Virus record (IMG/VR): IMGVR_UViG_3300000295_000002 | Location: 19,700 to 83,699 of that record | Origin: a virus | Strand: one strand, 5' to 3' | DNA length: 64,000 bases | Shown here: positions 341 through 49,870 of the stretch, piece by piece | Layout of the letters: every line of letters begins with the position of its first letter | Position numbering within the stretch: position 1 is the first letter of the stretch | Translations under genes and position numbers: made by a program | The notes under the pieces: generated by a model | The model's input: only the letters and a program-made list of their open reading frames with translations | The model's database searches: none | Told to the model about the DNA's origin: nothing

Positions 341-496
341 AAAACTCAACGACTTATCCCAAGCAGTTGAGAAAAAAATAAATTATTTAAGTAAAACAAA
401 ACACTTAAAAAGTGTCGATTCCAAATAAAGTACAACTACTTTCACAAGCTGTCATACAAGTATGAAAGATAATTAATAATTAAAAAATGTATTGAG

Positions 497-567
497 TAGT
501 TCCAGACTGAATCGAACAATCTCTAAGAGAACCAAAATCTCTTGTGCTACCGTTACACCATAGAACC
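497..567 (-). tRNA. tRNA-Gln (anticodon TTG)
   Basis: 71-nt cloverleaf on the minus strand: acceptor GGTTCTA/TGGAACT (two G-U pairs), D arm GTGT-AACGGTA-GCAC, anticodon arm AGAGA-TTTTGGT-TCTCT, T arm GATTG-TTCGATT-CAGTC. Confidence 0.8.
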
Positions 568-660: not shown

Positions 661-731
661 TGCAGAGTGCAGGATTCGAACCTGCGACCTCTAGGACATG
701 AAACTAGCGAGCTACCACTGCTCCAACCTGC
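661..731 (-). tRNA. tRNA with CAT anticodon (Met or lysidine-Ile), slightly atypical acceptor
   Basis: Minus strand: D arm GAGC-AGTGGTA-GCTC, anticodon arm CTAGT-TTCATGT-CCTAG, T arm GCAGG-TTCGAAT-CCTGC. The acceptor GCAGGTT/ACTCTGC pairs at 6 of 7 positions and the acceptor-to-D junction is short. Confidence 0.6.
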
Positions 732-1209: not shown

Positions 1210-1644
1210 TGTTTTATGTACCTAAAACCATGGAACTTTCTGTCGTTTGTGAATGCCACGATATTAATCGTTTCCGTATTCCCGATACAGCTAGCATTGA
1301 CGTTCCGTATGACACTCCATACATATTATAAATATCTTACACGTAAGATGGCAATAATACATACTTCGACTAGAATACTACATAGCAAACGATACAGACC
1401 TATATTATGCCCTTTGCTTGTGCTGATGTTTCAGCATAGTTCATCGGTATAGTCTATGTAATATCTGTTACTGACTAGTTTTTCGTATGTCGTGCGTCCT
1501 TTTCGCCAGGTCACGGCATCCATTGATGCTCTCCGGCTACTTCTTTTCCACGCATACTATATTCTGTGCGTCAATATGTCAAAGAACTCTTCTCTAGCTT
1601 TCAGTTTCATCACTTATAGTGATAATCTGATTCTAAAAGAATTG

Positions 1645-1718
1645 CGGTTTCAGCAGGATTCGAACCTACGACCTATCGGTTAACAGCCGACCGCTCTAAC
1701 CATCTGAGCTATGAAACC
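1645..1718 (-). tRNA. tRNA-Asn (anticodon GTT)
   Basis: Canonical 74-nt cloverleaf: acceptor GGTTTCA/TGAAACC, D arm GCTC-AGATGGTTA-GAGC, anticodon arm GTCGG-CTGTTAA-CCGAT, T arm GTAGG-TTCGAAT-CCTGC. Confidence 0.9.
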
Positions 1719-12389: not shown

Positions 12390-13451
12390 TTATTCCTCCT
12401 CTGTATTATTGTTGTTGTTATTCAGTTCCTTGTAATACTGCTGAATCTCCTCATCAGTCATACCCTTTTCTCGCATTACACGATAGTTTGCAGAACCACG
12501 TCTGAAATAAACCTGACTGCCATAGACTGAGCGTAGATTGTAATACGCACTTCTTACTAGTTCTTTGGTTAATACCTTGCCAGTGGACGAATAAACACCC
12601 ATCTGCTGCAACATCATAGCTGCATCGGCAAAGTTAGGTGTAGTCAATTCAGTGAAGTCATTGGTACACTTCTTAACCACATTCCATATAGCTTTGTTGC
12701 AAGGTTTCTCAGCAGCCTCTTTCTTGCGCTTTTCCGATGCCGCCTTCTGTGCGTTTGATAAATCGCATTTTCTAGGTCTGCCCAACTTCTTTACGACCTT
12801 ACCTGACTTTGAGATAAATTCTCCGTCTTTTGCCAACTTCTGTTTGCGTACTTCCAATGCGCTCTGTGTTCGTTCCTGTATGAGTTCACGCTCCATCTGT
12901 GCCGAAAATGAGAATGCGAATAGTAGCATTTCGTCAATCGCTTTCAGATGGCTACAATCAAGGTCAATGCCCATCTGAACGATAACCAAGCGCACGCCAC
13001 GTGGTTTCAGTTCGTCATTTACAAACTTGTTGATGTCGCTCATAGAACGACCGATACGGCTGACCTCTGACACGATAAGTATATCACCTTTATCAAGCAT
13101 CGGTAGCACTACCTTACCAAGGTTTCTATCCTTATAAGATACCTTACCCGATACTCCTTCCTCCTTCACTTCGTGAGTAGCTTTGAGATTGTGACAATTC
13201 AACCATTCGTTGATTGTTCTTTCTTGCTGCTCCAATGTCTGCTTTTCAGTAGAGACACGACTGTATATTATTACTTTCTGCTTTGGCTCATCATCATCGG
13301 TCATGTTTGCCTTTGCGTTGCAGCTTTTGTCAGAACGGCAAAGGTAGTGACCTTCTGTCATCATGCAATAAGGGCAATCCTTACAGCCGATGTTCACGAT
13401 GTCGTATTTTACAGATGCGCCACCTTCATTCTTGATTTCTATTGTCTTCAT
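12390..13451 (-). CDS. serine recombinase (resolvase/invertase family) with Cys-rich N-terminal extension
   Basis: Catalytic core KVIIYSRVSTEKQTLEQQ ... VSEVSRIGRS ... QMERELIQERTQ. The N-terminal ~55 aa carry CKDCPYC...C...C. The basic C-terminal tail has no obvious classical HTH. Confidence 0.85.
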   Translation of the reverse strand: MKTIEIKNEGGASVKYDIVNIGCKDCPYCMMTEGHYLCRSDKSCNAKANMTDDDEPKQKVIIYSRVSTEKQTLEQQERTINEWLNCHNLKATHEVKEEGVSGKVSYKDRNLGKVVLPMLDKGDILIVSEVSRIGRSMSDINKFVNDELKPRGVRLVIVQMGIDLDCSHLKAIDEMLLFAFSFSAQMERELIQERTQSALEVRKQKLAKDGEFISKSGKVVKKLGRPRKCDLSNAQKAASEKRKKEAAEKPCNKAIWNVVKKCTNDFTELTTPNFADAAMMLQQMGVYSSTGKVLTKELVRSAYYNLRSVYGSQVYFRRGSANYRVMREKGMTDEEIQQYYKELNNNNNNTEEE

Positions 13452-19685: not shown

Positions 19686-20033
19686 TTACTTCTTTTCTCC
19701 TAATTCTCTTTTTGCCAATTCATTTGTAGTTTCCCATTCCACATAGTCCCAACTTGTACCGAAATGGTCTACACAAAGAATATATTTATCCAATAAGTCC
19801 GAATAAGTGAAAAGCAAGCCAAATGTCTTTTCCAGATACTCTACATCGTCATAGGTGCAATCTGTAATAAACCACTGATAAATGTCTTTTTGTGTGCCGT
19901 CTTCTTCATCGAACAGTTCAAAGCGCATATTATCATAAATAGATGGGTCTATCTCTGTAATATTGTTGCAGAGGATAAGCGCATTATTACACCAATTTAC
20001 AGCTACAGAATAATTTGTTTTATAAGTCTTCAT
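19686..20033 (-). CDS. acidic hypothetical protein
   Basis: 115-aa ORF rich in D/E and aromatic residues. Confidence 0.6.
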   Translation of the reverse strand: MKTYKTNYSVAVNWCNNALILCNNITEIDPSIYDNMRFELFDEEDGTQKDIYQWFITDCTYDDVEYLEKTFGLLFTYSDLLDKYILCVDHFGTSWDYVEWETTNELAKRELGEKK

Positions 20034-40854: not shown

Positions 40855-40862
40855 CAAAGATA
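40855..40862 (-). promoter_or_regulatory. -7 promoter box (TATCTTTG), leftward, head/tail operon
   Basis: Reverse complement of caaagata, about 25 nt upstream of the ATG at 40829. Confidence 0.5.
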
Positions 40863-40958: not shown

Positions 40959-40966
40959 TATCTTTG
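40959..40966 (+). promoter_or_regulatory. -7 promoter box (TATCTTTG), rightward, terminase operon
   Basis: The box ends 4 nt before the terL ATG at 40971, implying a leaderless or near-leaderless mRNA. Confidence 0.5.
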
Positions 40967-40970
40967 CAGC

Positions 40971-43628
40971 ATGAACACGAATAAAGATATAGAAATCAGA
41001 CCACAAGAGGGCTTTCAAATGTCCTTTGCAAGTAGTAATGTCGATGTGGTTTTCGGTGGTGGAAATCTTGGAGGGGGCAAGCTACAGCCGCTTGATTCCA
41101 AGATACTTACACCATCGGGATGGCAGACTATGGGCGATATGCAAGTTGGTTCTAAGGTGATGACTCCATTTGATGGAATTGCCACCGTGATTGCTGTATT
41201 TCCACAAGGCGTGAAAGATGTGTATGAACTTACAACGCTAGATGGACGAAAGTGTGAATGCGGTCTTGAACATCTATGGACGGTACGAACTCCAAAGCAA
41301 GTGCATAAGTATCGTTCTCATAATAAGGAATGGGGATGGACTATGACTTTGCAGACAAAAGACCTTATTGATGGGTTGGAGCAAGGAAAGAAATACTTCA
41401 TCCCAAACAACAAAGCTATAGAGTTTGGTGAAAAAGAACTGCCAATACCGCCATACGTATTAGGTGTTATGCTCGGTGATGGATGCCTAACTATTTGGCG
41501 TAACGAGAAAGGTTTTAAAATTTCCAATACAGAATGGGATATAATAAATAAGGTAGCTAAATTGACGGACACAACAAGGGTGTACGAGCAACCAAGCTGC
41601 GTTACTAAATTGTTCTATACACCACACTATAAGGAGTATAAGGAATATTTAAGAGAAGAATGTTTGTTGGATTATTCCTACAACAAGTTTATTCCTGAAA
41701 AATATCTTCACTCTAGCATTGAACAAAGAAAGCAATTGCTAGCAGGTTTATTTGATACCGATGGAAGTGTAGAACCTTACGATAATAGTTATAGCTTCTC
41801 TACGACAAGTGTAAGGCTTAAAGATACATTTATTGAGCTGTGTCGTAGTCTTGGATATACATGTTCTTGCAGAGAAGACAGAAGAGAAAAATATACGAAA
41901 GGTGTTGCTTACGACATAGTAATACGCACCGACGATATTATATTCACAAGCGAGAAGCATAAGGCTAGATACAATAATGAGCGGAACAAAACAAGAAAGT
42001 ACGCTAAAGGCAACGACCATTCACGGATTGTGTCTATCAAAAAGGTAAGAAGAGCCGAGTGCCAGTGTATTTTGGTTGATGATGAAAAGCATTTGTATAT
42101 CACGGATGATTACATTACAACCCACAACTCGTATGGTCTTGTACTTGCGATGGCAGAGCCGTTAATGACTGACCCAGATTTTCGCGCAATGATTTCACGC
42201 CGTTCACTTGGTAATCAAAAAGCAGGTGGAGGATTCGTAGAGAAGTTCAAACAGATATTCGGAGCTGATTTCGTGAAAATCAGAGAGAGCGAGAATCCGC
42301 GCGTTACATTTCCGAATGGAACGTTTGTCGATTTGACGTATCTTGACGATTCCAATATGGATAAGTTGAGAGAGCGCGCGAAAGGATGGGAGTACGATTT
42401 GATTGCGATTGACGAGTTGACGGAGATGACTTGGGAAGTTTTCTCATACGTCATGACTCGAAACAGAGGTCAGAGCAAGACGTTTACAGGTAAGTTCTTT
42501 GCAACACTTAACCCGAAGCGTAGCCACTGGACGAGAATATTTCTTGATTGGTATATTGGCTCAGATGGTTTTATCATCCCAGAGCGTGATGGTGTAGTCA
42601 GATACTTCTATTGTGCAGGACCGACTGTTAAGGATGTTGTTTGGGGAATGTCTAAGCGAGAAGTCTATGAAAAATGTAAGATAGATATAGATAGAAAGCT
42701 TAAAACCATTGGCGGCAACTTTGGATATGAAGTAATGATTAAGAGTTTTGTTTTCTATCAAGGTAAACTTGGTTCAAACAAGAAGATGCTTGAAAACAAC
42801 TCTGGCTATTTAGGTTCTGTAGCGGCATCGGGAGGTAGGATGGCACAAGCTCTTATGGAGGGTAACTTCAATGTTGACCCAGAAGAGGAAGAGGATATTC
42901 CGATTCCTAGCCAAGCGGCAAGAGATTGCTTCGTAAAAGACCCTGCTGTGAATGGTGACAAGTGGATAACAATCGACTTGGCAGACTACGGTAAGGATAA
43001 CACTCTGATGTTGTCATGGAACGGATTCCATATAGTCAATTACGAAATCGTGATGCATTCAACACCGCGAATTAATGCGGAAAGAGCTAGATTATTCGCG
43101 GCGAGTGAGGGAGTGGCAGAAAGCCATATTATCTATGATGCTACGGCAGGTAGGTATTTCAATGACTATATACCAGATGCTATCCCTTATATATCAGCAG
43201 CAAAGGCAATGGGAATTTATTATTTGTCTGCTATGACAATAAAAGACCTATGTTACTTGCGACTGAGCTACATGATTAAGCGAGGACAGCTTACATTCTC
43301 TGATAAGGTTGCGAATGCGGTTTATACGCATCAAAACCTCAAATACAGAGTTTCCATACAGAATGAGTTCATGGAAGAATGCGCGGTAGTTCGCTTTGAT
43401 AAGATGCAGAGTGGAAAGAAGAAGTTGCAGAGCAAGAAGGAAATGAACCGAAATCTTGGAAAAGACCGTTCTATGGATTTGCTCGACCCTTGCGCAATGA
43501 GAATGTACCCATGTTTGAATATGGAGTATGGTAGCGAGCTACAAGAAGGGTTCAGACTCGCAGCACAAGAAGTTGAAGAGAAAAATCCTAATGCTCAGAG
43601 CATTTATGATGATACGTTGTACTATTAA
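40971..43628 (+). CDS. terL: terminase large subunit, interrupted by an intein
   Basis: Walker A FGGGNLGGGK is followed after the intein by SYGLVLAM. Walker B-like DLIAIDELTEM. C-terminal nuclease-like region. 885 aa as the precursor, 536 aa without the intein. Confidence 0.9.
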   Translation: MNTNKDIEIRPQEGFQMSFASSNVDVVFGGGNLGGGKLQPLDSKILTPSGWQTMGDMQVGSKVMTPFDGIATVIAVFPQGVKDVYELTTLDGRKCECGLEHLWTVRTPKQVHKYRSHNKEWGWTMTLQTKDLIDGLEQGKKYFIPNNKAIEFGEKELPIPPYVLGVMLGDGCLTIWRNEKGFKISNTEWDIINKVAKLTDTTRVYEQPSCVTKLFYTPHYKEYKEYLREECLLDYSYNKFIPEKYLHSSIEQRKQLLAGLFDTDGSVEPYDNSYSFSTTSVRLKDTFIELCRSLGYTCSCREDRREKYTKGVAYDIVIRTDDIIFTSEKHKARYNNERNKTRKYAKGNDHSRIVSIKKVRRAECQCILVDDEKHLYITDDYITTHNSYGLVLAMAEPLMTDPDFRAMISRRSLGNQKAGGGFVEKFKQIFGADFVKIRESENPRVTFPNGTFVDLTYLDDSNMDKLRERAKGWEYDLIAIDELTEMTWEVFSYVMTRNRGQSKTFTGKFFATLNPKRSHWTRIFLDWYIGSDGFIIPERDGVVRYFYCAGPTVKDVVWGMSKREVYEKCKIDIDRKLKTIGGNFGYEVMIKSFVFYQGKLGSNKKMLENNSGYLGSVAASGGRMAQALMEGNFNVDPEEEEDIPIPSQAARDCFVKDPAVNGDKWITIDLADYGKDNTLMLSWNGFHIVNYEIVMHSTPRINAERARLFAASEGVAESHIIYDATAGRYFNDYIPDAIPYISAAKAMGIYYLSAMTIKDLCYLRLSYMIKRGQLTFSDKVANAVYTHQNLKYRVSIQNEFMEECAVVRFDKMQSGKKKLQSKKEMNRNLGKDRSMDLLDPCAMRMYPCLNMEYGSELQEGFRLAAQEVEEKNPNAQSIYDDTLYY
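41082..42128 (+). mobile_element. intein (349 aa) with LAGLIDADG homing endonuclease
   Basis: Hint N-block LQPLDSKILTPSGW, block B GLEHLW, LAGLIDADG motifs YVLGVMLGDGCL and LLAGLFDTDGSV, C-terminal CQCILVDDEKHLYITDDYITTHN followed by Ser (+1). Confidence 0.85.
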
Positions 43629-45760: not shown

Positions 45761-48700
45761 ATGAAGGCAGAATCATTATACATACAGAAGTTGACTTACG
45801 ATGAGAACACTGGTAATGAGATTATCGGTTTGTTTCCATCGGAGGCTACCCCTGCTATTGTATCATCATATACCTACGATGCAAAGCGTATGGGAGGTGC
45901 TCCTACCCTTACTGCTACAATATATTCTTCTGAGCCTTTGCAATGGAAGAAGGAAGAGTTCGTAGAGTACAATGGCGATAGATTCTTTGCGTCCTACACA
46001 CCAAACTCTACAAAAGATAATTCGTCTAGAATGTGGAAGAGTGAAATTACTTTCACATCTAGAAGAGAATTACTTGATAACACTCTGTTCTTTGATGTTG
46101 CCGTTGATGATGTTGATACACAGAATAAAGACAGATACCGCTCAAATCAGACAAAGTTCACGTTTGGTGGAACTATCCATGAGTTTGTTGCTCGCATCAA
46201 TAGTTCAATGGCATATTGTGGTTTGTATCGTCCCACAGATGAATACAAGGGATATTACGTTGTTGTTGACGAAGGATATGGAACAGATGAAGTTAAGGAA
46301 GTATCATTTGAAGACCAATATCTAACTGATGTTTTACAACTTGTCAATACAACTTTTGAGCTTGATTACTACTGGGATGGCAACGTTTGTCATGTCGGCA
46401 AGGTACAGCACGACTTAACCGATACACCTATAAAATATGGTTGTATTGATGCCCTTATATCTGTATCAAAGGAGAATGCGAACTATAAGATAGTTGATAT
46501 GATAACAGGTTACGGTTCATCTGATAACCTGCCATATTACTATCCTAATGATGACGAGTTTGGTGAAGCAGTATTCAATACAGAGAATATCATCAAGGAT
46601 AAAGTCAGCGTAGAGTTGTCAAAGTTTCTCAAAGATTCAAGATACAATGATACCCTTGTACTTTATAAAAGCAAGGAAGGAAAAAGCTACAATGGAAGTG
46701 TAGATGTAAGTCCACCTGCATTTTACATTCATAGTTCTACTATTCCAGAAAATTTATCACAAGCAGATAGTCAGTCTAACCCAACGGTTACGTGTAGTTT
46801 CTGGATTAACATTCCAATCAGCGCGATTAAGGGTCAGAAGATAGATTTGACGAACTTGAATTTTAGCTTTGAATTATTTAGTTACATTACGAGACCTGAC
46901 TTTATATCAAACGTTGGTAAAGCCAATAGGAGCATAAAACTGAGAAAAATAGGAGAAGAAACGTATGTGCCTATCTCTGAAGGGATGAGCTTTGGAAATG
47001 TTTCTACATACACATTTGAAGAGAATGGAGATTTCACATTAACTATAGGTGCTGACTTTTCTTACAATTGCAAGGTGTTCAATAGTGATGGCATTAGGAG
47101 TTTTTATGGCGCGAGTGTTTGGAATGTTGCTTTTGGTGGAAGTGTTGAGTTCTCATACGAGTCAAAATCGGAATACGAATGGAAGAATGGAGACAAGTAC
47201 ATTCCTTATAGTGAAGCTGGTATTAATGTAAGTGAAATCGGCGAGGCGAATTGCATTGAATACGACTATCAATTTGTAAAAGATGGTGATAGATACGGAT
47301 TCAACAAGGTTTATACCGGAACTGAGGATAATGCAGTAAAGGTAATAGTTACTGATGGAGTCTGGATTGCACCATCATCGGTACTTATGCCTTCTATATA
47401 TCGCAACACGAAAGGCGCAGAGCGTTTCTATTATGCTTTGAATAACACCCATAAATTGCCTAGTGGTAGTGGATATTATGAGTTTGTAAACTTGTATAAG
47501 AAAGGAAATCCTCACCAAGGAACGGTTACTTTTGATGATATAAAACCAACTATCAATGGAATTGTAAATGCAGAAGGACAGTTGTTTGGAGAGATTGCGG
47601 ATGTTGCTTTTGATAAAGAAGATAGTGATGTAAAGGATAGCGATGGAACAACATATATACATCAATATTTCTACATCAAACTACACAAGTTTAATGGAGA
47701 GTTTGGCTTTGATTTATTTAATCATGTCTTAGCCAAGGAATCAGCAAAGATAAATCTCATCAAGAGTAACGGATGCCCTGCTTGTTCGTTTGTGATTTAC
47801 AATCAACCGAGTGCTGACAATTCAAAGTGTTACAATTGTGTAAGTGTTGATGAAAATGGAAACTTAAAACGAGTTCGCACAGATAAGAATGACTACATAT
47901 TTGCTAACGCTAGCGATGCTTACGAAGATAAGCTAAACCAAGATTCAACTCAGAAAGAGTTATGGATTGCGGTTCAAAAGGACACATCAACACTAGGCAT
48001 TGTGATGCCAAACGCAAGTGCTGGATTTAAACCGCAAAAGGGAGATTTGTTTGTTATCACAGGCATTAAACCTCCAAAAGTTCTTGTAACGGCAGCAGAG
48101 AAACGACTCGATGATGCTCTTATTAAACACATGAGTGAAAACAATACAGACCAATTCAATTACTCTGTTAAGTTTTCTCGCATATTCTTACAAGAGAATC
48201 CTGACTTTGCAAGTAAGTTGAACGAGAATGCAAAGCTTTCAATACAGATACAAGGTGATTCTGATAGCGATGGAAATCTTATCAGTCACGAAGTTTTCGT
48301 CAGCAACTACTCAGTAAAGGTTGATAACGATGAGCTGGCAGAAGTTGAGATTGAGCTTGTTAATTCGTTGGAAGTTACAAAGAGTGATGTAAAGCAGATT
48401 ATTGATGCTGTAAAGGGAGAAGCGGTTAAGTCTCTATCTAGTATGGTTGGTGGAAGTAGTACTAACAACTTTAATGCTAGTATAACCGATAAGATGTATC
48501 TCTCTAAACTGAAAGATGATATAGCTAGCGGCACAATCACCTTTCAGAAGGTGCAGAAGTTCGTGCAAGGCTTCTTCCTCGGTCACTCAAATGAGTTTAG
48601 CATAGACGGAAGTGGTAACGCTATCCTCTCTAGTGTGTTGGTGAATCTCTTGAAATCACTCGATTTTAACGAGGCAGAGCATAGTGGTTTTGCTATTAAG

Positions 48701-49870
48701 CAACGAAGCGATGGTAAGTTTCAAATGTTGCTTACGGATTTGATTGTATGGGGTAAGGCAATTTTCAACACCCTCTTGATACGTGAACTCAGCTACGTTG
48801 GAGGTAATATCGTCCTCTCCCCTGCTGCTGGTAAGATAAGCTACATCAAGGAAGTATATAGCGAGACAACGAATGAGCTGATTGGCTGGAAATGCTATCT
48901 CCTCGCTGATGATGGAACGACCGCCACTATCAACTCATTCAAGGTGGATGACCAAGTTAGGTGCAAGACGTTCAACATAGCACCTGGTGTCTATGAGAAC
49001 GTCAGCAACAAGGACTATTGGAGACTTCTCACAAAGGTATCAACCGAGAATGAAGTAATCACCGATGATGAAGGTCACGAGCTCTATGACGGAAAGAAGT
49101 TCGCTTGGATTCAGATAGCGAAGGAGAACTGCATGGAAGGCTCGGATAACCCTGCTGTAGGAGATACCATCGTCCTCATGGGTAACAGAAGTGACAAGAG
49201 CAGACAACACCTTCTGATGATGGAGACCGAAGGAGATTCCGCACCTACGTTCACCATGTACCGAGGTATCAACTCCTACTCCCTCAAAGGTAAATCCATC
49301 TTCGATGTAGGATTCAACGGCATCAACATCGTGTCAAAGTACTACCATATAACCACCGTTGACGGAGAGAAGATTTGGACTCCCGTCTATCGTGGTGATT
49401 GGAAGGAAGGTACGGAATACAGCTACTATGATGAGGTTACATGGCTTGGCACAAGATGGCTCTGTATTTCTCCAGAAGGACAGACCACGACCGAAGAACC
49501 ATCTGAGGATTCGCCTTATTGGAAGGCTACCACCAACGTGTATACACCAAAGCTATACCTCTATACGGATATAGTCAATAGCGGAATTGCTATAGGCGAG
49601 ACACACAACGTTACTTGCAAGCTAATGTTAGGCGATAAAGATGTGACGAACGGAGTAGCATCATGGAAGGTGACACGCAAGACCAATGATTCCGTAGATG
49701 ATGCTGCTTGGGCGACTAAGGATAAGGTTAAGAACTTCAATGGCTCAATAGATATTGTCTGGTCTAATGATGGAACAGAAGACGATTTGGGCAAGGGTGA
49801 TACTGCGAAATTTGTATTCACAGCAACGACCACAACAGGAAAAATTCATCAAGAATATATTAAAGTTTAA
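45761..49870 (+). CDS. tail hub / tail-associated (Tal-like) host-specificity protein
   Basis: 1369 aa. The N-terminal ~350 aa resemble the prophage-tail/Tal hub (…LQLVNTTFELDYYWDGNVCHVG…). Long beta-rich C-terminal extension. Confidence 0.55.
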   Translation: MKAESLYIQKLTYDENTGNEIIGLFPSEATPAIVSSYTYDAKRMGGAPTLTATIYSSEPLQWKKEEFVEYNGDRFFASYTPNSTKDNSSRMWKSEITFTSRRELLDNTLFFDVAVDDVDTQNKDRYRSNQTKFTFGGTIHEFVARINSSMAYCGLYRPTDEYKGYYVVVDEGYGTDEVKEVSFEDQYLTDVLQLVNTTFELDYYWDGNVCHVGKVQHDLTDTPIKYGCIDALISVSKENANYKIVDMITGYGSSDNLPYYYPNDDEFGEAVFNTENIIKDKVSVELSKFLKDSRYNDTLVLYKSKEGKSYNGSVDVSPPAFYIHSSTIPENLSQADSQSNPTVTCSFWINIPISAIKGQKIDLTNLNFSFELFSYITRPDFISNVGKANRSIKLRKIGEETYVPISEGMSFGNVSTYTFEENGDFTLTIGADFSYNCKVFNSDGIRSFYGASVWNVAFGGSVEFSYESKSEYEWKNGDKYIPYSEAGINVSEIGEANCIEYDYQFVKDGDRYGFNKVYTGTEDNAVKVIVTDGVWIAPSSVLMPSIYRNTKGAERFYYALNNTHKLPSGSGYYEFVNLYKKGNPHQGTVTFDDIKPTINGIVNAEGQLFGEIADVAFDKEDSDVKDSDGTTYIHQYFYIKLHKFNGEFGFDLFNHVLAKESAKINLIKSNGCPACSFVIYNQPSADNSKCYNCVSVDENGNLKRVRTDKNDYIFANASDAYEDKLNQDSTQKELWIAVQKDTSTLGIVMPNASAGFKPQKGDLFVITGIKPPKVLVTAAEKRLDDALIKHMSENNTDQFNYSVKFSRIFLQENPDFASKLNENAKLSIQIQGDSDSDGNLISHEVFVSNYSVKVDNDELAEVEIELVNSLEVTKSDVKQIIDAVKGEAVKSLSSMVGGSSTNNFNASITDKMYLSKLKDDIASGTITFQKVQKFVQGFFLGHSNEFSIDGSGNAILSSVLVNLLKSLDFNEAEHSGFAIKQRSDGKFQMLLTDLIVWGKAIFNTLLIRELSYVGGNIVLSPAAGKISYIKEVYSETTNELIGWKCYLLADDGTTATINSFKVDDQVRCKTFNIAPGVYENVSNKDYWRLLTKVSTENEVITDDEGHELYDGKKFAWIQIAKENCMEGSDNPAVGDTIVLMGNRSDKSRQHLLMMETEGDSAPTFTMYRGINSYSLKGKSIFDVGFNGINIVSKYYHITTVDGEKIWTPVYRGDWKEGTEYSYYDEVTWLGTRWLCISPEGQTTTEEPSEDSPYWKATTNVYTPKLYLYTDIVNSGIAIGETHNVTCKLMLGDKDVTNGVASWKVTRKTNDSVDDAAWATKDKVKNFNGSIDIVWSNDGTEDDLGKGDTAKFVFTATTTTGKIHQEYIKV

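Follow-up and report, generated by a model that had tools for sequence, protein, structure and literature searches.

In this study, we found that the large terminase gene (terL) of an uncultured tailed gut phage is interrupted, between the codons for the Lys and the Ser of the Walker A motif (P-loop), by an in-frame insert of 349 amino acids (aa) which we read, with a probability of about 0.88, as a mobile class 3 (WCT-type) intein carrying a LAGLIDADG endonuclease. The gene lies in a 64,000-nucleotide (nt) stretch of the IMG/VR virus record IMGVR_UViG_3300000295_000002 (positions 19,700 to 83,699 of that record). This whole stretch is called the window here, and its positions are used throughout.

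Exact, in-frame removal of the insert restores the host protein, as seen in both the protein and the DNA of intein-free alleles. The original prediction, made from the letters of the window, had placed the insert at 41082-42128. These coordinates are exact, with the first codon, cta (codon 38, Leu38), at 41082 and the last, aac (codon 386, Asn386), ending at 42128, and all the strings it had quoted are present (FGGGNLGGGK/LQPLDSKILTPSGW, GLEHLW, YVLGVMLGDGCL, LLAGLFDTDGSV, ECQCILVDD, and ITTHN/SYGLVLAM, where a slash marks a junction). It had further stated that removal of the 349 aa gives a GGGKS Walker A motif, and had advised looking for intein-free terL alleles in relatives. Among those found, P0047 and P0048 both read GGGK/SYGLVLAM without interruption where the window protein has GNLGGGK and S separated by the insert. 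P0047 (536 aa, from a cluster of 1,405 sequences) reads FGGGNLGGGKSYGLVLAM across the site, with the junction FGGGNLGGGK/SYGLVLAM, and is 98.9% identical to the extein of the window terminase (TerL). On either side of the insert, its DNA (locus L001) runs colinear with that of the window at 93-95% identity, and the only break is at 41081/42129. This comparison was made ungapped, as MAFFT alignment of intein-free with intein-containing genes misplaced the short N-extein. Since the intein-free allele reads GGGK/SYGLVLAM, both intein boundaries are fixed, and they cannot be slid because the flanking residues (K, S) and the ends of the insert (L, N) are not repeated. A family profile run against the six-frame translation found only this one copy of the intein in the window. 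Removal at the RNA level, as for a group I intron, was considered and rejected, since the insert is in frame, free of stop codons and folds as a Hint domain.

The identification of the interrupted protein as TerL is based on the restored Walker A motif (GxxxxGK[ST]), a terminase family match, and the position of the gene in a head and packaging cluster. In a Pfam search with the 885-aa open reading frame (ORF), the C-extein gives a weak match to Terminase_6N, and the intein-free allele P0047 scores 22.0 bits against this family, for which the cut-off is 22. By tblastn, P0047 shares 25-33% identity with proteins annotated as terminase large subunits in phages of Bacteroides, Parabacteroides, and Phocaeicola, and the NCBI title for the intein-free form is 'MAG TPA: terminase large subunit [Caudoviricetes sp.]' (DAG77505.1). 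The intein-free TerL had no phmmer match among PDB sequences, and terL had no megablast match in the INPHARED phage collection, the latter indicating a phage without a close sequenced isolate. Spliced TerL would have 536 aa (885 minus 349) and the Walker A sequence GNLGGGKS, of which the G and K are invariant in an alignment of 53 relatives (alignment A1).

In the insert itself, a LAGLIDADG endonuclease with two motifs is set into a Hint domain, an identity which follows from matches to PDB sequences and from the structural matches of an AlphaFold2 model, and which goes well past what chance would give. The Hint blocks, the two LAGLIDADG motifs and the terminal HN followed by Ser, all named in the original prediction, are confirmed, and Pfam, PDB and AlphaFold2/Foldseek comparisons support the combined Hint and LAGLIDADG fold. 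Within the insert, the Pfam matches are LAGLIDADG_3 (E=1.5e-9, intein residues 215-286) and Hom_end (E=2e-8), both in the C-terminal half of the endonuclease domain; intein numbering follows the reference P0001, which has the same length as the window intein and differs from it at one residue. By phmmer, the insert matches the WCT-grafted gp41-1 intein (6riz, 1e-8), native gp41-1 (1.5e-6), Msm DnaB1 (6bs8, 1e-5), Mch DnaB1 (6rix/6riy), and, via its endonuclease part, PI-SceI. The matches to 6riz, 6qaz, 6bs8, and 6rix span the N- and C-terminal lobes of the splicing domain, and Hint blocks A, B, F, and G are all found. The AlphaFold2 model, built with the 53 relatives of alignment A1 as input, has a mean predicted local distance difference test score (pLDDT) of 91.4 and a predicted template modelling score (pTM) of 0.90. 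In a Foldseek search of the PDB with this model, PI-SceI came first (E=4.5e-19, template modelling score (TM) 0.73), followed by TliVMA, PhoVMA, and PI-PfuI, and the endonuclease fold resembles those of PI-SceI and I-DmoI. The splicing lobe alone matched gp41-1_WCT, Msm DnaB1, and Mch DnaB1 at a root mean square deviation (rmsd) of 1.5-2.3 A and 26-34% identity. Each of the two LAGLIDADG motifs contains a conserved acidic residue (D133 and D227).

Class 3 is one of the less common intein types, and its mechanism and WCT signature have been described previously (PMC2807308, PMC4031507). All the sequence features by which Tori et al. 2010 defined the class are found in the TerL intein, namely the lack of Cys, Ser, or Thr at position 1, Trp at B:12, Cys at F:4, Thr at G:5, and Ser or Thr (in the class, rarely Cys) at +1, and its assignment to class 3 is, at the level of sequence, well supported. 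As proposed in the original prediction, residue 1 is a Leu and therefore not a nucleophile. The intein-free alleles fix it there, and in the HMMER alignment residue 4 of the insert falls on chain residue 4 of 6bs8, a chain which ends at the terminal Asn of the intein. A cloning primer in PMC7664689 encodes G-K-A-L-A-L-D, the Msm intein starting with ALALD right after the P-loop GK. Thus, from the alignment register and the primer together, Leu1 corresponds to Ala1 of Msm DnaB1. The W, C, and T positions assigned in the prediction likewise stand in the alignment to 6bs8, 6rix/6riy, and the WCT-grafted 6riz, with the refinement that the block F Cys is the second Cys of ECQC (C329). This is position F:4, corresponding to Cys118 of Msm DnaBi1 (PMC6195587) and Cys124 of MchDnaB1 (PMC7664689).

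These positions are also invariant within the family. We compared 110 related TerL inteins (29-100% identity), extracted with a pattern which imposed H-N followed by S, T, or C. Block B H-L-W, the F:4 Cys (position -21), and the G:5 Thr (position -3, not imposed by the pattern) are present in 110/110, whereas Cys327 (position -23), the neighbour of Cys329 in ECQC, is a Cys in just 68. The +1 residue is Ser in 91 and Thr in 19. Position 1, on the other hand, varies freely (L45 E29 Q13 M10 A6 D3 P2 F1 C1), with a nucleophile in only 1 of the 110; Leu1 is therefore one state of an unconstrained position and has no mechanistic weight. The sole member with Cys1, P0088 (GGGK/CNPLST...), keeps the full WCT set and resembles the few Ser1 or Cys1 WCT inteins that Tori et al. 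left unclassified. The positions of the intein parts, together with those of other features of the window, are given in Table 1.

Table 1. Positions of the terL precursor, its intein, and other features in the window
Feature	Position	Strand	Description
terL precursor ORF	40971..43628	+	large terminase with in-frame intein; 885 aa, stop included in coordinates
N-extein M1-K37	40971..41081	+	read from sequence; Lys37 (aag, 41079-41081) is the -1 residue
First seven Walker A residues, G31-N-L-G-G-G-K37	41061..41081	+	read from sequence
Intein	41082..42128	+	349 aa, Leu1-Asn349 (precursor L38-N386); Hint domain split by LAGLIDADG endonuclease domain
Block A, LQPLDSKILTPSGW	41082..41123	+	residue 1 Leu, non-nucleophile; aligns residue for residue with Msm DnaB1 ALALDTPLPTPSGW
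CxC pair C58-E-C60	41253..41261	+	C60 is B:6; shortly before His64 of block B; of 81 family members, 64 have C58 and 70 have C60
Block B, His64-Leu65-Trp66	41271..41279	+	B:10 His, B:12 Trp; aligns with HQW of 6bs8/6rix and HLW of 6riz
LAGLIDADG motif 1, YVLGVMLGDGCL	41454..41489	+	predicted catalytic D133, invariant in 81 full-length inteins
LAGLIDADG motif 2, LLAGLFDTDGSV	41736..41771	+	predicted catalytic D227; L219, L220, G222, L223, and D225-T-D-G228 invariant in 81 inteins
CxC pair C327-Q-C329	42060..42068	+	block F; includes predicted nucleophile Cys329
Cys329	42066..42068	+	block F:4, predicted class 3 nucleophile; aligns with F:4 Cys of 6bs8 and 6rix ('vrCvevd')
Block G, Thr347-His348-Asn349	42120..42128	+	G:5 Thr, terminal Asn; aligns with THN of 6bs8, 6rix, and 6riz
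C-extein	42129..43628	+	starts with Ser387 (tcg, 42129..42131), the +1 residue and Walker A Ser
Gene after portal	45761..49870	+	very large, 1369 aa
Two TATCTTTG copies	40855..40862, 40959..40966	-, +	outward-facing; within the divergent intergenic region (141 nt) that precedes terL; fit TAnnTTTG
tRNA genes Gln-TTG, Met-CAT, Asn-GTT	496..567, 661..731, 1644..1718	-	phage-borne
Serine recombinase-like ORF	12390..13451	-	353 aa; PHROG DNA invertase E=4e-33, integrase E=5e-27

Biochemically, class 3 inteins are distinguished by a branched thioester at block F, an absolute need for the F:4 Cys, and N-terminal cleavage that proceeds without nucleophiles at residue 1 and +1 (PMC2807308). Two points weigh against the class 3 reading of the TerL intein. 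When the WCT residues were grafted onto the class 1 gp41-1 intein, no productive splicing was obtained (PMC7664689), and thus the WCT set alone is not sufficient proof of class 3 chemistry. Furthermore, the Cys329 thioester, the order of the steps and the endonuclease activity are all deduced from the sequence here. Among other explanations, the one which survives best, albeit very improbable, is a class 2-like mechanism as in Mja KlbA, in which the +1 residue attacks the N-terminal junction directly and Cys329 is not a nucleophile. The TerL intein does share with class 2 inteins the lack of a nucleophile at residue 1. However, the KlbA type has Ala1, Ser at G:6, Cys at +1, and Asp at F:4 (PMC4031507), whereas the window intein has Leu1, His at G:6, Ser at +1 (Ser or Thr in the family), and Cys at F:4. 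The F:4 Cys, the B:12 Trp, and the G:5 Thr are invariant in the family, and the nearest solved relatives are class 3 inteins.

Alternatively, the insert could be a decayed, non-splicing one in a terL pseudogene or a defective phage, its motifs being relics. Some intein-like ORFs are indeed pseudogenes, such as Arsp-FB24 Arth_1007 (PMC3196547), and class 3 splicing of the window protein is predicted from sequence. Despite this, we consider decay even less probable than class 2-like splicing, because the frame is intact over 885 codons and the catalytic positions are invariant in 110 diverged copies, while 26 mini-inteins (described below) have lost the endonuclease only. In addition, intein-bearing alleles are abundant, in large clusters (for example 783, 633, 426, and 204 sequences) and on long phage contigs of up to 89 kb. 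Considering that intein-bearing alleles form such large clusters, these phages must make working terminase, and a dead insertion in TerL, which is essential in tailed phages, would not persist. The least probable alternative, a class 1 intein with mis-set boundaries whose true first residue is a Ser, Thr, or Cys, might find some support in the Ser at the sixth residue of the insert (LQPLDS) and in Cys1 of P0088, but it is already refuted by the intein-free alleles GGGK/SYGL, which set the insert as L38..N386 with no class 1 nucleophile at position 1, by the variation of residue 6 (S, A, T, E) across the family, and by the non-nucleophilic position 1 in 109 of the 110 members.

Class 3 splicing thus remains the preferred reading, and with the inteins of Bethlehem DnaB, Dra Snf2, and Msm DnaB1 taken as models it may proceed as follows. 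The 885-aa precursor would be unable to form the ATP-binding loop. After folding, the thiol of Cys329 (F:4), with His64 and Trp66 positioning and activating, would attack the carbonyl of Lys37 in the Lys37-Leu38 bond, so that the N-extein would be held on block F as a branched thioester. The hydroxyl of Ser387 (+1) would then accept the N-extein as an ester, cyclisation of Asn386 (Asn349 of the intein) would free the 349-aa intein, and an O-to-N shift would yield the native GNLGGGKS terminase of 536 aa. The endonuclease of the freed intein, with Asp133 and Asp227, would in turn be expected to cut intein-free terL alleles during co-infection, and repair would copy the intein in (homing). Given that the intein interrupts the P-loop and has the Walker A Ser as its +1 residue, the precursor should not bind ATP, and we infer that packaging depends on splicing. 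The same argument is made for mycobacteriophage TerL inteins by Kelley et al. (PMC5050341).

The original prediction regarded a class 3 intein in the terminase P-loop as unusual, which did not hold. Tori et al. 2010 (PMC2807308) had already reported that large terminases of phages contain WCT inteins, for the most part inserted in the P-loop; a class 3 intein at this site has thus been known in kind since 2010, the kind is well documented and numerous, and the current understanding of inteins is unchanged. In an exhaustive HMMER scan of 1.84 billion representatives, which returned 17,669 clusters at E<=1e-3 and 3,146 at E<=1e-30, we located 154 inteins in the best 148 proteins. WCT is found in 144 of them, and 100 are inserted after 'GK'. 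Among the proteins that carry them are PhoH-like ATPases, DnaB/primase, AAA proteins, SNF2 helicases, and other terminases. These metagenomic P-loop inteins are 31-54% identical to the window intein over the full length, with T118 S34 C2 at +1 (Thr or Ser in 152/154). Leu1, which had also been singled out as unusual, occurs in 5 of the 154 (A97 P23 E11 S7 L5 and others) and starts some metagenomic relatives such as the SNF2 proteins P0223 and P0271. Whereas Ala is the commonest residue 1 in this wider set (97/154), Leu is the commonest in the TerL family (45/110); Leu1 is a minority state overall and the prevailing one within the family.

Among characterized inteins, Msm DnaBi1 (6BS8) and M. 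chimaera DnaB1 (6RIX/6RIY) are closest in their splicing domain. Like the window intein, they have a non-nucleophilic residue 1, the WCT set, and a THN end. Their block A is nearly identical to that of the window intein (LDxxxxTPSGW), and they share 31-34% identity with it over the superposed N-terminal splicing lobe, at an rmsd of 1.5-2.3 A. They are inserted after the Walker A Gly-Lys, where the P-loop Ser doubles as the +1 nucleophile (PMC6195587, for Msm DnaBi1), and the window intein likewise follows the P-loop GK and has a Ser of dual role. They differ in their host, a bacterial replicative helicase, in Ala1, and in being mini-inteins of 139-146 aa without endonuclease as compared to 349 aa. 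The class 3 prototype, the DnaB intein of mycobacteriophage Bethlehem, resembles the window intein in being a LAGLIDADG-containing class 3 intein of a phage ATPase, as do the terminase WCT inteins of Tori et al. and the class 3 TerL inteins of mycobacteriophages. Mycobacteriophage TerL inteins have been shown to splice and home (Kelley et al. 2016, PMC5050341). In the text consulted from that study, the class 3 label is given to TerL1-c, -d, and -e, located in a helix and the Walker B motif, and no class was found for TerL1-a at the Lys/Thr P-loop site. The inteins of the Bethlehem phage, of Tori et al., and of Kelley et al. have actinobacteriophage hosts and reside in TerLs of the Terminase_1 type, whereas the window TerL is Terminase_6-like and belongs to a gut phage for which the closest relatives in culture are phages of Bacteroidales. 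PI-SceI (VMA1 intein), TliVMA, and PI-PfuI, the best matches to the whole model (TM 0.60-0.73), share the Hint domain and the double-motif LAGLIDADG endonuclease but are class 1 inteins (Cys1) with 12-16% identity and with other hosts and insertion sites. TerL inteins, of 'Hint-Hop type' and up to two per TerL, have also been reported in crAss-like phages (Delta group) of gut Bacteroidota (PMC7886860). Their class and site are unreported in that paper, and what they share with the window intein is the presence of a TerL intein in a gut phage.

The alleles at this site differ widely among relatives. A search of 5.8 billion proteins gave 2,119 relatives, and an insert census was made on the best 120 cluster representatives. 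Of these, 9 have no insert, 81 have one of 347-353 aa, 26 one of 159-161 aa, and 4 one of 369-371 aa, and every insert directly follows the Walker A Lys. Asp133 and Asp227 are invariant in the 81 full-length inteins, and the endonuclease and splicing domains are equally conserved (mean identity to the query 68% versus 66%). TerLs whose exteins are at least 98.5% identical to that of the window carry inteins 85-100% identical to its intein, or none, while exteins only 81-82% identical are accompanied by inteins of 90-91% identity. With near-identical exteins having varied or no inteins and diverged exteins having similar ones, the histories of intein and extein disagree, a pattern consistent with that expected from homing as judged from these sequences. 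TerLs that are more than 98% identical have full inteins or none there, and at greater divergence mini-inteins or inteins of a second lineage occupy this one site.

The window intein is also of mixed descent. Over positions 41382..41681 (intein nt 301-600, where the endonuclease domain begins), identity to the intein of P0008 (locus L003) is 70%, while the rest of the intein is about 94% identical to that of L003, and the remainder together with the exteins 92-98%. The 70% stretch within an intein of about 94% identity indicates a recombinant mosaic. Immediately upstream of the insertion site, window positions 41036..41081 differ from L001 10066..10111 by 10 synonymous third-position changes in 46 nt, whereas the 51 nt downstream differ at 1 position, the allele being otherwise 96% identical. 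This clustering could reflect a co-conversion tract or divergence of the target site. The codon of the -1 Lys (AAG versus AAA) was considered as a marker of intein presence and rejected, as the intein-free L005 has AAG and the mini-intein locus L006 has AAA.

In the 26 mini-intein alleles (P0044, P0046, P0049-P0058, P0104-P0120; L006), a linker of about 10 residues stands in place of the whole endonuclease domain, and all the WCT and block residues are retained. The second lineage, of 369-371 aa, occupies the same K/S site in P0045, P0059, P0060, and P0064 (and P0131). These TerLs are 75-90% identical to that of the window, but their intein is only about 29% identical; it has a non-nucleophilic residue 1 (A or Q), HLW, GRCITVD, and VTHN.

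The genes adjoining terL encode a major head protein, an SPP1-type portal (downstream), a tape measure protein and a tail protein, which identify the virus as a tailed phage. Considering the tape measure protein and the SPP1-type portal, along with the nearest TerLs being from LoVEphage-like and other Bacteroidales phages, it is not crAss-like. The very large gene after the portal varies in size among close relatives, from 1369 aa in the window to 1383 aa in L003 (7800..), 1618 aa in L002 (7768..), and 1830 aa in L001 (13744..19233), and it is within this gene that the colinearity of the window DNA with L001 breaks off. The serine recombinase-like ORF may be a sign of a temperate lifestyle or of an invertible segment.

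The original prediction had called the virus a Bacteroidota phage. This is plausible, although its basis is indirect. Of five related terL loci (59-85% identity) whose contigs were assigned to metagenome-assembled genomes (MAGs), four are in Bacteroidales bins (Tannerellaceae, Prevotella twice, and Bacteroidaceae) and one is in a 'Firmicutes' bin. The Bacteroidota -7 promoter motif TAnnTTTG is enriched in the window, with 97 sites as compared to 70 +/- 8 expected, a number reached by 0/100 shuffles; one copy precedes the ATG of terL by 5 nt, and a second is directed towards the divergent gene. Taken together, TerL similarity, MAG bins, and promoter motif enrichment make a Bacteroidota host likely. 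The 'Firmicutes' bin weakens this inference. It contains L005 (CAVEFV010000158.1), a 22-kb contig with an 85%-identical intein-free terL in the MAG 'Firmicutes bacterium CAG:95', and its assignment is probably a binning artefact.

Two CxC pairs, C58-E-C60 and C327-Q-C329, flank the active site, the former lying on the adjacent active-site strand, and a disulfide or a metal site could arise from them. Msm DnaBi1, also of class 3, has a reversible disulfide trap, and by comparison with it one can conceive, although we think it unlikely, that the intein is not simply a parasite but acts as a conditional packaging switch, oxidation or metal binding at these pairs locking the terminase precursor. 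For Cys48, the partner residue in the redox switch of DnaBi1, no obvious counterpart is seen in the window intein. If such a switch did exist, packaging would be tied to the reducing conditions of the anaerobic gut host. The variation of residue 1, with its nine residue types, could also tune the splicing rate between phage lineages.

In summary, annotation of the 885-aa ORF should name both TerL and its intein, and the intein should be masked when terL is used for phylogenies or clustering of gut viromes. With residue 1 being L, E, Q, M, A, D, P, F, or C while the -1 Lys and the +1 Ser or Thr are fixed, the family is a natural test of the tolerance of position 1, and the mini-inteins of 159-161 aa are natural compact class 3 inteins; both may be of interest for protein engineering. 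The presence of intein-positive, mini-intein, and intein-free alleles in near-identical phages makes this system suitable for studies of homing in the gut virome. Class 3 inteins have so far been known mostly from actinobacteria and their phages, whereas here they turn out to be abundant in gut phages and, in metagenomes, within the P-loops of numerous ATPases.

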